Positions 767 to 12,326 of a stretch of 41,191 nucleotides of DNA are shown here, piece after piece. This DNA is from Candidatus Altiarchaeota archaeon. GTDB lineage: Archaea > Altiarchaeota > Altiarchaeia > IMC4 > SCGC-AAA252-I15. Position numbers and translations under genes: made by a program. How positions within the stretch are numbered: position 1 is the stretch's first letter; each line of letters opens with the position of its first letter. The DNA lies in NCBI GenBank assembly GCA_043800255.1, contig JAZDNF010000004.1, positions 1 to 41,191 on the forward strand, in the 5' to 3' direction. The notes beneath the pieces are model-generated. The model saw nothing but the letters and a program-made list of their open reading frames with translations, ran no database searches and was not told where the DNA came from.

Positions 767-2776
767 TTGAAGGAGAAGGTTGAAGGTTTTCTGAAGAAGA
801 AGTCTAAAGACATCAAGCAGATTGGCGAGTTCTACCCTGAGAAGAAGAGCCTGATTATTGACTGGCAGGAGCTTGAACGCTACGACAAGGAGCTGGCGGA
901 GGAGCTGATAAAAAAACCGGACGACACCATACTACTCTTTGAGGACCTGCTCAAGGAGAACCCCATCTTCACAACCCTGGAGGAGCCTAAATTCCACGTC
1001 CGCTTCTCAAACCTTCCGAAGGAGAAAGACTACAGTGTGATGGTGAGGAACCTCACGACAGACTACATCAGGCGGCTCGTTTCAGTTGATGGCATAGTAA
1101 ACAAGATAGGCGATGTCCTCCCGAAGGTTCAGGAGGGGAGGTTCATCTGCATCAAATGCGGCGAACACAACATTGAGCCGCAGCCTGACAGCCTGCTCAG
1201 GGAGCCGATAAAGTGCAAGAACTGCGGGAGAAGGGAGTTCCGCTTCGACGCTGATAATTCAACCTACATTGACATCCAGCGGCTTGAGATACAGGAGCCA
1301 TTGGAGATGCTTCGCGGGGGGGAGCAGGCCAGGCGCATAGAAGTGTGGACCGAAGACGATCTAACGGACGTTGTGACAGCAGGCGACACGATTACGGTGA
1401 CTGGGATATTGCGGCTGCGGCCTCCGCAGAAGAAGGGCTCAGTATACTTCAAGTACCTAGAGTCCAATTACATCGAAAAGATTGAGTCAGAGTTCGAGGA
1501 CATACAGATATCTGACGAGGAGAAGAAGGAGATAATGAAGCTGTCCAAGGACCCGAAACTGTATGACAAGATTGTAAACTCCATAGCTCCTTCAATATAC
1601 GGCTACCATGAGGTTAAGGAGGCCATAGCCTTGCAGCTTTTCGGCGGTAGACACGGGAAAAAACTCCCGGACGGGACTTCAGTCAGAGCTGACATACACC
1701 TGCTGCTGGTCGGAGACCCGGGCGTCGCTAAATCGAGGATGCTCCAATATGTTGATCAGATTGCGCCGAAGAGCATATACGTCACAGGTAAGGGCACAAC
1801 CGGGGCAGGCCTTACCGCCACAGCGGAGAAGGACGAGTTCGCCGAAGGCTCATGGACTCTGAAGGCTGGCGCTCTCGTACTGGCAGGCGGCGGGATAGCG
1901 GCGATAGACGAGTTCGACAAGATGGATCCAGGCGACAGGAGCGCCATGCACGAGGCTATGGAGCAGCAGACAATATCCGTTGCAAAGGCCGGGATTGTGG
2001 CAAAATTCAAAGCCAACACTTCCGTTCTCGCAGCCTCGAACCCGAAATACAGCAGATTCGACAATTACAAGCCGATTGCGGAACAGTTCGACATCCCCCC
2101 AACATTGATAAGCAGGTTCGACCTGATATTCCCGATAAGGGACATACTCGACAGCGAGACCGACCGGCAGATCGCCACCCAGATGCTCAAGATGCACAGA
2201 ACAGAGAAAGAGCTGAAGGAGATAGAGCCTCCAATAGCGGCCGACTTTTTCAGGAAGTACATAGCATACGCGCGGGTGAACTCCCACCCGATACTGACGG
2301 ACGACAGCGCGGAGAAGATTAAAGAATACTATGTTAGCATCAGGGCGAGGAGCAGCGGAGGCGCGGCCGCGGCAACGCCAAGGCAGCTTGAGGCCATCGT
2401 CAGGATGGCGGAAAGCTCTTCCAAGATGCGGTTAGACGACACGGTCACCGTTGAAGACGTCGAGAGGGCGATAAACCTGACCGAGTTCGTCCTCAAGGAG
2501 ATAGCATACGATCAGGCCACCGGCCTTTTCGACATAGACCGGGTCGTCACAGACCATCCCAAATCCACCAGAGACCGTATCAGGACCATAGAATCTATAA
2601 TAAGGGAGCTTATCAAGGCCAGCGACGACGGCACGGCCAACAGGGACGAGATAATCGGGAAAGCTTTGGACTCCAAAATCGACAAATTCGAGATAGAGAA
2701 GCTGATTGACGAGCTGAAGAAGAAAGGCGACATCTACGAGCCCAGGCACGGCAAATACAAGCTCACCGAAGAGTAG
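767..2776 (+). CDS. mcm: MCM replicative helicase
   Basis: CxxC..CxxC Zn finger, Walker A GDPGVAKS, Walker B IDEFDKM, SRFD Arg finger, C-terminal wHTH; TTG 767 preferred because of upstream GGTGG (ORF open from 746); no intein. Confidence 0.97.
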   Translation: MKEKVEGFLKKKSKDIKQIGEFYPEKKSLIIDWQELERYDKELAEELIKKPDDTILLFEDLLKENPIFTTLEEPKFHVRFSNLPKEKDYSVMVRNLTTDYIRRLVSVDGIVNKIGDVLPKVQEGRFICIKCGEHNIEPQPDSLLREPIKCKNCGRREFRFDADNSTYIDIQRLEIQEPLEMLRGGEQARRIEVWTEDDLTDVVTAGDTITVTGILRLRPPQKKGSVYFKYLESNYIEKIESEFEDIQISDEEKKEIMKLSKDPKLYDKIVNSIAPSIYGYHEVKEAIALQLFGGRHGKKLPDGTSVRADIHLLLVGDPGVAKSRMLQYVDQIAPKSIYVTGKGTTGAGLTATAEKDEFAEGSWTLKAGALVLAGGGIAAIDEFDKMDPGDRSAMHEAMEQQTISVAKAGIVAKFKANTSVLAASNPKYSRFDNYKPIAEQFDIPPTLISRFDLIFPIRDILDSETDRQIATQMLKMHRTEKELKEIEPPIAADFFRKYIAYARVNSHPILTDDSAEKIKEYYVSIRARSSGGAAAATPRQLEAIVRMAESSSKMRLDDTVTVEDVERAINLTEFVLKEIAYDQATGLFDIDRVVTDHPKSTRDRIRTIESIIRELIKASDDGTANRDEIIGKALDSKIDKFEIEKLIDELKKKGDIYEPRHGKYKLTEE

Positions 2777-10059: not shown

Positions 10060-11532
10060 TTAAAGGCTCATGATGAGGTTGATGCCGTTTATCATTGCAT
10101 CAACGCTTGCCAATATTATGTCTGCTCCGGTGCCTTGGGCTGTGACTATCTTGTCCTTGCTTTTCAGTTTGACTTCTATCCTCACCAGGGCGTCGCTTCC
10201 GCCTGAGACTGCGTCGACGTGGTATTCTGTGAGTTCGAATGGGACGTCCTTGCAGGCTGTTTTTATCGCGTTTATTGCCGCGTCCACCGGCCCGGTCCCG
10301 ACTCCTGATACCACCTTCTCGTCGCCGTTTATCCTCACTTTGACTGACGCTGTTGGCGTGAACTTGTTGCCTGCTACTGCGACAAGCTCCACGAGCTGGA
10401 GTTTAGCCTCCTTCTCTATCCCTAAGACCGTGTTCGCGATGCTTTCAAGGTCTACCGAGGTTACTTTCTTGCCCTTGTCTCCCAGGTACTTGATCTGCTT
10501 GAATATCTGCTCAAGCTGGCTGTCATCAGCATTTATCTTAAGCTCCTTGAGCATGGCTTTGACGGATTTCATGCCAACATGTTTTCCGAGGACGAACCGC
10601 CTCCTAGCTCCCACAAGCTCCGGCTTTATGAGCTCGTAGGTTTCAGGCTTCTTCAATATGCCGTCGACGTGGATTCCGGCCTCATGGGTGAACGCGTTCT
10701 CCCCTACTATTGCCTTGTTCGGCGGCACAGGCACGCCGGTCAGCCTCTCGACGAGGTCTGATATGTCCCGTATCCTTCTCGTCTTTATCCTGGTCTTGTA
10801 GCCGTAGCACATCTGCAGTGCCATCACAACCTCCTCGAGGGAGGCGTTGCCAGCCCTCTCGCCAAGCCCGTTGACTGTGACGTCGACGACTGTTGCCCCA
10901 TACCTTACTGCTGCGACGGTGTTCGCGGTTGCCATCCCCAGATCGTCGTGGCAGTGCACTCCCACAGGTATTTTAGCGCCTTTGGTGAGAAGCTTGAAGA
11001 GTGTCTGAGTCCTCTCGGGGGTCAGCACTCCTACGGTGTCAGCCATCGTGAACCTGTCGGCCTTATTCTCTACTGACGCTTTGAGAACTTTTTTCAGGAA
11101 TTCCGGGCTTGTTCTTGAACCGTCCTCCGTGCATAGGTCTACTCTTAGCCCGTGGTCTTTGCTGTAAGTTATCAACTCTCCGACGGCGTCCAACACTTTC
11201 TCCCTACTGCTTTTCAGCTTATACTTTATGTGCAAGTCTGATGTTGGGGCGACAAGGAACACGCAGTCGACGTCGCATCCTAGGGCGAGGTCTATGTCCT
11301 TCTGAAGCAGTCTGGTATAGCTTGCAACCTCAGCCTTCAGACCCTGCTTTGCTATGAGCTTTATGCTCTCACGCTCCCCCTCTGATGTTATGGCAGAGCC
11401 TGCCTCCAGGTAATCAACTCCGAGCTCGTCCAAGGCTTTCGCTATCTCAAGCTTCTCTTTCGGCGTCAGCGTGACGCCTGGAGTCTGCTCCCCATCCCTC
11501 AGCGTTGTGTCCAAAACCCGTATATTTTTCAT
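10060..11532 (-). CDS. cimA: (R)-citramalate synthase (LeuA family)
   Basis: [26 protein letters not shown] (resembles methanogen CimA rather than LeuA/AksA), [15 protein letters not shown], LeuA-type C-terminal regulatory domain; start ATG 11532. Confidence 0.85.
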
Positions 11533-11594
11533 CTTATAGAGTATCCTCAAGGATTTTTTGTCCCGTGAGATGAAAAGTGTGTTGTTGTGGAGGT

Positions 11595-11672
11595 TCAGCC
11601 CCCAATTATGATAGAGCCTATGCTGATGGTGATGCGAGAAAACCCAACCTTACTGTCTGAAGCTCTTCTCAT
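11595..11672 (-). promoter_or_regulatory. Ile-rich leader peptide ORF (25 aa) upstream of cimA
   Basis: MRRASDSKVGFSRITISIGSIIIGG*; 6 Ile in codons 14-23; TTTATATA at 11704-11697. Confidence 0.75.
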
Positions 11673-11708
11673 CTATGTATAATAAGAAAAATTGCCTATA
11701 TAAATGCC

Positions 11709-12326
11709 ATGATCGTCGCAGTAGACCAGGATGATGTTCTGATGGTTCCCGGTTCTATGGGCGTCCTCCAAGCGGAGTTGAACCTCAGAGAGGGCGAGAA
11801 GAAGGCCATAATGGAGGTCCTTCGCGATTACAAGCGGGGTAAGGCAACCACATTAGATGTTCATGCCGCACGATACAACATCCTTAAGGGTTATCCCAGG
11901 GACGAAATCTTGGAGGCGCTTGAGCGTATGTCTGCGAGAATCCCTGAGGAGTCTCGAAAGTTCGTCAAAAAAGTCAAAAATTTTGCAGACGTCTACATTG
12001 TCAGCAACAGCGATGTGAGCATCGTTGAAGAGATTGCGAAGTCACTTGATATAGATTCTGTCGCTGAAAACAGGTTCCTGTTTGAGCTGAAGTTCGTAAC
12101 AAACAGGAAGAGCGAGATGCTCATCCGCCGCGGGATCACGCCTGATGTTGTCATAACCGACGACCCCCTCAATGAGTCCGATTTCCTGGACATGGGTAAA
12201 CTGGGCATTGTTATGGCGAGGCGGGACAACCCTGTCACGTACTCAGAGGATATCAGAAAAAAATATTTTTTCGTGAACTCACTCGAGGAAGCGCATGATA
12301 AAATCGTCTCATCTATTCCCATTTAG
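11709..12326 (+). CDS. HAD-superfamily hydrolase, SerB-like, divergent
   Basis: N-terminal DxD (VDQDD), motif II IVSNS, IAKSLDIDSVAEN, motif IV-like TDD. Confidence 0.65.
   Translation: MIVAVDQDDVLMVPGSMGVLQAELNLREGEKKAIMEVLRDYKRGKATTLDVHAARYNILKGYPRDEILEALERMSARIPEESRKFVKKVKNFADVYIVSNSDVSIVEEIAKSLDIDSVAENRFLFELKFVTNRKSEMLIRRGITPDVVITDDPLNESDFLDMGKLGIVMARRDNPVTYSEDIRKKYFFVNSLEEAHDKIVSSIPI

Follow-up and report, generated by a model that had tools for sequence, protein, structure and literature searches.

The window analysed here is a stretch of 41,191 nucleotides (nt) from an uncultivated Candidatus Altiarchaeota archaeon (assembly GCA_043800255.1, contig JAZDNF010000004.1, positions 1 to 41,191), whose genome comprises 1.75 Mb in 17 contigs. 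On its minus strand the window encodes cimA, and directly upstream of this gene lies a short open reading frame (ORF) rich in isoleucine (Ile) codons, followed by a hairpin with the stop codon in its loop, a C-rich spacer and a sequence complementary to the cimA start (Table 1). The region is very probably an Ile-sensing leader. The cimA protein scores 626 bits against NF002085 and 516 bits against TIGR02090, but it fails the LeuA equivalog NF002086 (488 bits, cut-off 532). A paralog encoded elsewhere in the genome, 48% identical to the window protein, passes that model with 555 bits. Since the paralog passes the LeuA equivalog and the window protein does not, the window gene is identified by elimination as citramalate synthase. 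Close homologs of the window protein are also named citramalate synthase in some sources, and the named close homologs belong to Candidatus Altiarchaeota. A search of the genome for mcrA gave no match.

Table 1. Features of the cimA leader region in the window, and of the parallel leaders upstream of leuA and cysK.
Feature	Sequence	Coordinates	Strand	Remarks
cimA		10060..11532	-	archaeal isopropylmalate/citramalate synthase subfamily, below the LeuA equivalog cut-off
cimA start region	AGAUGAAAA	11526..11534	-	pairs with 11576-11568 in the predicted fold
Shine-Dalgarno-like sequence	GAGGAU	11543..11548	-	10 nt upstream of the cimA AUG; GAGGU or GGAGG at the equivalent position in relatives
C/A-rich spacer without G	CAACAACACACUUUUCAUCUCAC	11565..11587	-	followed by GGGAC at 11564-11560
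Candidate anti-start sequence	CUUUUCAUCU	11568..11577	-	45-36 nt before the cimA AUG; contains U4; occupies the position of the relatives' oligo-U tract
Stop-codon hairpin		11588..11604	-	UGGGGG (11604-11599), loop CUGAA, CCUCCA (11593-11588)
Leader ORF	MRRASDSKVGFSRITISIGSIIIGG, then stop	11595..11672	-	25 codons and stop
Ile-rich stretch		11604..11633	-	codons 14-23, six Ile codons; the last is AUU 11606-11604
Leader start region	AGAUGAGAAG	11665..11674	-	predicted transcript 5' end; alternative partner of 11577-11568
TATA-like box	TTTATATA	11697..11704	-	putative leader promoter; predicted transcript start near 11674
Leu-rich leader ORF	ends NPLQLLLLLLRLRE, then stop	L082 1330-1425 = G000:C7:29292-29387	+	before the LeuA paralog
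Poly-Cys leader ORF	ends FCCCCCQCRL, then stop	L114 1344-1267 = G000:C7	-	upstream of cysK (L114 1180-251)

The relatives compared are 21 genomes of the Altiarchaeota family, 20 of which have cimA. A covariance model (R1) built on the Ile codons and the hairpin found exactly one copy in each of 14 genomes, and by coordinates all 14 copies lie directly upstream of cimA. A fifteenth copy was found on a metagenome contig (L118). R1 gave no match in one genus represented by four genomes (0 of 4) or in three further genera with one genome each; of these three genomes, one lacks a cimA match and another has the gene truncated at the end of a contig. Inspection of 13 loci in other families of the order, with a filter and by eye, revealed no such leader, and among 152 more distant cimA and leuA loci it was present only in the close relative L118. 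In Rfam no family reached its gathering score, the two matches (E = 1.4 and 1.8) standing at 13-16 bits against 38 and 75.

Across the 15 leaders the peptides are 12-26 residues long and have in common only the Ile run and the I-I-G-x-stop ending. Over the last ten positions 61 of the 150 residues are Ile, compared with a share of 6.8% in the genome's long ORFs. Two sense codons always lie between the last Ile codon and the stop, and this Ile codon is AUU followed by GG in 14 of the 15. A short leader ORF with a run of cognate codons thus stands directly upstream of a biosynthetic gene, as in a classical attenuator. Counted from the start of the best TATA-like octamer, the distance to the leader ATG is 32 nt in the window and 32-39 nt in 14 of the 15 leaders. 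From the usual TATA-to-start spacing of archaeal promoters, the transcript is predicted to begin 0-2 nt upstream of the leader AUG here and 1-8 nt upstream in the relatives, and the leader ORF is therefore probably leaderless or nearly so. One relative (L239, G018:C34) has a leader peptide, MEPHYKQTAQSTLLTISIGSIIIGG, whose last 11 residues and hairpin type are as in the window, and the genome of L239 is listed under another genus than that of the window.

The only conserved structure of the region is the hairpin over the stop codon, on which the initial annotation was silent. Its loop carries the stop UGA (11597-11595) and its 5' arm consists of the last two sense codons. A hairpin of at least 5 base pairs (bp) over the stop is found in 13 of 14 cimA leaders, and the fifteenth leader has one by eye. 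By the same rule it is found in 8 of 10 cysK leaders but at only 37 of 1454 stops of long ORFs. The arms have seven different sequences among the cimA leaders. In a MAFFT alignment of the 15 leaders (A3) 86.7% of the cells pair, compared with 21-51% after a shift of the partner columns, and three of the six pairs vary on both sides; the figure is lowered by three of the 15 rows, which MAFFT placed out of register. RNAalifold returned this hairpin and no second helix. G-U pairs occur in four stems, which argues for an RNA structure rather than a DNA palindrome. A model-fitted alignment (A2) had the hairpin arms out of register, with 70% of the cells paired, and was set aside in favour of A3.

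Downstream of the hairpin the RNA is poor in G. In the 18 nt that follow it, G accounts for 14 of 270 bases in the cimA leaders (C 36%) and for 11 of 162 in the cysK leaders, with C at 36-38% over both leader sets and G at 25% genome-wide. C-rich, G-poor RNA directly after a leader stop codon is as expected of factor-dependent control. In 12 of 14 cimA leaders a tract of U5-U8 follows, 36-78 nt after the leader stop codon, and in 10 of these 12 its start lies 37-44 nt upstream of the cimA AUG; in L239 a U5 was read by eye at about -39. In the window the tract appears to be reduced to U4 within CUUUUCAUCU, which is taken as its counterpart because MAFFT aligns the two in two runs and their positions match. 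The T tract was also considered as the cimA promoter, but this was ruled out by geometry: the transcript start would fall inside the Shine-Dalgarno sequence.

Two parallel leaders were found in the same genome. A leucine (Leu) leader peptide, MGSFVYQTVGFEDFVSGNPLQLLLLLLRLRE, precedes the LeuA paralog, and a cysteine (Cys) leader peptide, MNPQKVHQGRGTPTGFCCCCCQCRL, precedes cysK (TIGR01139, 439 bits, cut-off 351), which is followed by a cysE-like sequence. Within the family a filter detected the Cys leader at 10 of 12 cysK loci and the Leu leader at 13 of 14 leuA loci. The hairpin over the stop codon is longer and composite in the leuA leaders, and the partner of the stop tracks the stop codon itself (UAG/CUA, UAA/UUA, UGA/UCA, by eye). 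Many cysK leaders have a U tract about 40 nt before cysK, which reads T6-G-T8 in this genome. The parts, their order and their conservation are as described, and Ile, Leu and Cys leaders stand before cimA, leuA and cysK respectively. Because each of the three leader types matches the amino acid of its downstream gene, they form the strongest argument that ribosomes sense the codon runs. Genome-wide scans for further leaders were noisy with loose filters, and a strict filter returned the cimA leader and one unrelated ORF.

Several other features were observed at the leuA and cysK loci. The Leu leader peptide is conserved beyond the Leu run as well (S-G/W-N-P, R-L-R). A second tiny ORF (MSRANRIIILL, then stop; L082 about 1437-1472, plus strand) starts within the 3' strand of the leuA leader hairpin; an AUG is found in its place in 10 of 12 aligned leuA leaders, and the short peptides vary (by eye). 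The Cys leader has a stop-codon hairpin AGGCU-CUGAA-GGCCU and, about 20 nt on, a conserved GGAC motif before the T6-G-T8 tract, and the cysE-like sequence lies downstream of cysK in L114. On either side of the TATA box of the cysK leader promoter (L114 about 1350-1410, minus strand) stands a copy of the palindrome TTAACAAT-N-GTTAA. The two copies are kept in relatives (cysK loci L199-L208), and the adjoining divergent gene has a helix-turn-helix-like start. The palindrome is probably an operator, and cysK would therefore be under protein control besides leader control. In L199, L200, L201, L202, L205 and L207 a run of A7-A10 lies between the U tract and the cysK Shine-Dalgarno sequence, immediately next to the latter, and could pair with the U tract after read-through. 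Elsewhere in the genome a Thr-rich ORF (C13) precedes another ORF.

On the promoter side of the cimA leader, a divergent HAD-family gene starts at 11709 on the plus strand, at a distance of only 37 nt from the leader ATG. About 25-32 nt upstream of this gene there is another TATA-like box, TATAATAA (11677-11684, plus strand). The intergenic region (11677-11711) probably holds back-to-back promoters that give rise to two leaderless mRNAs.

The initial annotation proposed, as the first of two options, a translational switch, in which pairing of CUUUUCAUCU with the cimA AUG would be the off state and its pairing with the leader AUG the on state. A re-reading of the minus strand found all elements of this proposal: CTTTTCATCT at 11577-11568, AGATGAAAA at 11534-11526 with the cimA ATG inside it at 11532-11530, and AGATGAGAAG at 11674-11665 with the leader ATG inside it at 11672-11670. 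The perfect 9-bp helix with the cimA start exists, its exact span being UUUUCAUCU (11576-11568) with 11534-11526, so that U11576-U11568 pair with A11534-A11526 and C11577 stands opposite A11525. It is part of the minimum-energy fold of 11680-11500, with probabilities of 0.79-0.99 for the single pairs and about 0.95 in the ensemble, and the duplex energy is -8.7 kcal/mol. The alternative 10-bp pairing with the leader start, including one G-U pair, also exists (-10.4 kcal/mol). As AGAUGA-AA is common to both start regions, the two pairings are not independent. Dinucleotide shuffling of the upstream RNA (n = 2000) produced a perfect helix of at least 9 bp over the AUG in 1.5% of the shuffles and one of at least 8 bp in 5.3%, in a test picked after the helix had been seen. 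The 181-nt fold as a whole has ordinary stability (z = -0.86). A small hairpin proposed to hold the Shine-Dalgarno-like sequence (ATCC-TTGA-GGAT, 11554-11543) is present as sequence, but as a structure it is a minor conformer with a probability of about 0.2.

Although the 9-bp helix is rare in shuffles and dominant in the ensemble, a purely translational switch confined to this genome is unlikely. Ribosomes were modelled on the Ile codons (one, or two queued), at the stop codon and on the leader AUG. At every position the leader-AUG pairing stayed at or below 0.07 and the helix with the cimA AUG at 0.89-0.95; a stall on the Ile codons gave no predicted change and left the cimA AUG paired (0.95). 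In the full-length fold the leader start region pairs locally with 11639-11628, and when the leader-AUG pairing is forced it sits 5.1 kcal/mol above the best fold. Only in transcripts too short to include the cimA AUG does it become the best fold, and a kinetic trap is therefore conceivable, but the model contains no link between the swap and stalling at the Ile codons. The predicted transcript start near 11674, which follows from the TATA spacing, puts 11674-11673 at or beyond the end of the RNA and may remove these bases from the alternative pairing.

The pairing is also not conserved. In A3 the helix columns pair in 50.9% of the cells, against 50.3% when shuffled and 48-61% when shifted. 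In 13 other sequences scored, the best Watson-Crick helix over the AUG has 3-8 bp and lies in non-equivalent places. The expected number of pairs between the tract window and the start region is 8.7 in this genome, 4.9 in L104 and at most 2.5 in the other 12. Neither thermodynamics nor conservation thus lends support to the swap of start codons. The results bear out the initial annotation in that cimA very probably has a regulatory leader and that no enteric-type terminator precedes the gene. Its second option, a polarity-type termination, fits the conserved features best.

Another alternative, as unlikely as the swap, follows the poly-Cys type of mycobacteria: the regulatory codons or their flank would pair with the ribosome-binding region of cimA, and a stalled ribosome would free this region. 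The available part of a preprint (bioRxiv 10.1101/834739) describes such a precedent. The type has no need of a U tract, which suits the leuA leaders as well as this genome and G004. The cimA AUGGC has its best partner (5-6 bp) in a GCCAU(C) located within the Ile run or just upstream of it in 6 of 14 leaders, and a modelled stall opens the AUG in L094 (from 0.26 to 0.65) and L110 (from 0.14 to 0.62). On average, however, the accessibility of the ribosome-binding region is the same under the ribosome masks (0.47, 0.45, 0.47). This genome has no such pairing, the helices elsewhere are short and long-range, and the hairpin and the C-rich spacer would be left unexplained.

An attenuator of the enteric type is less probable still. 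It would require the stop-codon hairpin (1:2) to give up its 3' arm to a downstream partner (2:3) and thereby block a terminator (3:4) before the U tract. A hairpin does stand directly before the U tract in L085 and L112, and its 5' half can, in L085, pair with the 3' arm of the stop-codon hairpin (-13.9 kcal/mol; p = 0.043 relative to shuffles). Over 15 leaders, though, the complementarity of the 3' arm to downstream RNA is at the level of shuffles (mean z = 0.08). The terminator hairpin is inconsistent, with only a few of the 12 of 14 relatives that have a U tract showing an adjacent one, and the ribosome masks have no consistent effect. The search for mutually exclusive antiterminator and terminator helices yielded the one conserved helix only, RNAalifold giving no second. 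No intrinsic terminator before cimA was found in this genome, and a pattern scan of 11300-11900 returned 0 sites with a GC hairpin and a T run, in agreement with the initial annotation.

Equally improbable is the absence of any regulation, in which the ORF would be a small hydrophobic peptide or untranslated, and the helix a chance match of a pyrimidine-rich remnant with an A-rich start. Several leaders do resemble a single membrane helix, the helix is confined to this genome and the available RNA contigs reach only the coding region of cimA. Against this, three leader types match the amino acid of the downstream gene, the peptides vary outside the codon run, the hairpin covaries, and the leader is found once per genome and always before cimA.

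The weakest alternative is frameshifting at a hungry codon, in which a +1 slip at a vacant Ile codon would let the ribosome read the spacer, open the anti-start helix and restart at the cimA AUG. In its favour, this genome and G004, both without a U tract, have a +1 frame that runs open from the last Ile codon to a stop 1 nt short of the cimA AUG (UAAGAUG in the window, 11606-11534, minus strand; UGAAAUG in L117), and the AUU-GG context of the last Ile codon noted above suits a slip. In 6 of 15 leaders, however, this frame closes 48-94 nt ahead of the AUG; long open frames come as no surprise where G is scarce, a slippery sequence is absent, and neither the +1 and -1 frames nor stop read-through behave consistently across the leaders. 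The idea also arose after the data had been seen.

The known designs thus failed their tests. The features left to build on are a single hairpin, which would be able to close only once the ribosome is off the leader, unstructured C-rich RNA and, in most cases, a U tract; a model based on the loss of transcription-translation coupling is favoured for this reason. The stretch (11526-11674) is tentatively read as the downstream half of a ribosome-mediated Ile attenuator of cimA. That its read-out is termination by loss of coupling is held with somewhat less confidence, although premature termination after such a loss is more likely as a read-out than the swap of start codons.

The steps that we infer, the direction of the response included, would be as follows. 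A promoter about 30 nt upstream would give an mRNA beginning at or just before the leader AUG, and a ribosome would read its 25 codons, six Ile codons being within the last twelve. Two codons past the last Ile codon, the short hairpin with the stop codon in its loop would form. When Ile-tRNA is plentiful, the ribosome would reach the stop and be released, and the hairpin would close. The uncoupled RNA polymerase would then cross the C-rich, G-poor stretch and terminate prematurely, in the relatives at the oligo-U tract about 40 nt before cimA and probably aided by FttA/aCPSF1. When Ile-tRNA is scarce, the ribosome would stall on the Ile codons and occupy the 5' arm of the hairpin, which could not close for this reason. 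Shielded in this way by the stalled ribosome, the polymerase would proceed into cimA. In this genome the decayed U tract, CUUUUCAUCU, is complementary to the cimA start and may dampen translation instead of, or besides, termination. Leaders without a U tract may have a translational read-out in general, through the 9-bp helix here or through the GCCAU:AUGGC pairing of 6 of 14 leaders. The genome encodes an orthologue of aCPSF1/FttA (TIGR03675, 899.8 bits, cut-off 580.2). In the available text of PMC11616081, the mutual exclusion of FttA and a coupled ribosome on the polymerase is a hypothesis of the authors.

Several points weigh against the coupling-loss model. A ribosome stalled at the Ile codons leaves the C-rich spacer uncovered; the model therefore requires a lasting attachment of the stalled ribosome to the polymerase, a behaviour unproven in archaea. 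What the hairpin does is an assumption of the model, and in this sequence the equilibrium probability of the hairpin is only 0.36. This genome and G004 have no U tract of at least 5 nt and most leuA leaders lack one, and the tract is therefore not a universal read-out. The relatives are kin, so that the counts overstate the independent support, and several leaders are hydrophobic enough for small membrane peptides. In one metatranscriptome run three small contigs are identical to the window in the cimA coding sequence (10305-10945) and none covers the leader, and two sister RNA runs contain no contigs of the window DNA. Such contigs cannot show transcript ends and are thus uninformative about the leader.

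The closest known systems are the leader-peptide transcription attenuators of bacteria (trpL, ilvL, leuL, hisL, thrL). As in these, a short ORF carries a run of cognate codons, the stop codon is in or next to the first hairpin, and ribosome stalling is the likely sensor. In contrast to them, the leader described here is archaeal, its mRNA is probably leaderless and no alternative helices were found; the termination signal of the relatives would be a bare oligo-U tract, which is missing in this genome. The tnaC leader and other leader controls of Escherichia coli are factor-dependent and use Rho. They share with the cimA leader a C-rich, G-poor, unstructured RNA right after the leader stop, and termination upon loss of the ribosome cover would be shared as well. 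Here, however, the factor would be FttA/aCPSF1, and the stall would occur at sense codons rather than at the stop, with the C-rich site uncovered. To our knowledge there is no example of leader-peptide attenuation in archaea. A literature search that did not extend to subscription journals likewise found no archaeal leader-peptide attenuator in the texts available to it.

In mycobacteria, leaderless poly-Cys short ORFs have Cys codons that pair with the Shine-Dalgarno region (Canestrari et al., bioRxiv 10.1101/834739, as far as the available text goes). Both systems have a short ORF rich in one amino acid, leaderless in mycobacteria and predicted to be so or nearly so here, before cognate genes at several loci per genome, and this genome has a poly-Cys leader before cysK as well. 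No pairing of codons with the Shine-Dalgarno sequence is predicted here, though, and the conserved parts are instead the stop-codon hairpin and the C-rich spacer. Oligo-U tracts and a factor that acts on uncoupled polymerase are also known from archaeal polarity and FttA, according to the available parts of PMC11616081, PMC8716108 and PMC7515710. FttA is described there as a general system for gene ends and quality control, whereas no amino-acid-sensing role in a 5' leader was found in the literature available. In a term search of the accessible text of a review on coupling in archaea (PMC8116511), the words attenuation, attenuator, leader peptide and polarity were absent.

The interest of the finding lies in the membership of this locus in a conserved archaeal Ile leader. 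It is possible, if rather less likely than the attenuator of cimA by itself, that the family has a whole set of Ile, Leu and Cys attenuators without alternative hairpins, in which the stop hairpin would report completion of the leader and termination by FttA and the U tract would decide on the C-rich stretch. In terms of annotation, three unannotated short ORFs and one new RNA motif are gained. Attenuation by leader peptides is the textbook case of transcription-translation coupling in bacteria. The set of attenuators proposed for the family would represent ribosome-mediated attenuation in archaea for the first time and would follow its own design, and a conserved trio of Ile, Leu and Cys leaders would show that archaea, too, use the ribosome as an amino-acid sensor. 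The leaders would then be a natural substrate for the question whether a coupled ribosome shields archaeal RNA polymerase from its termination factor.

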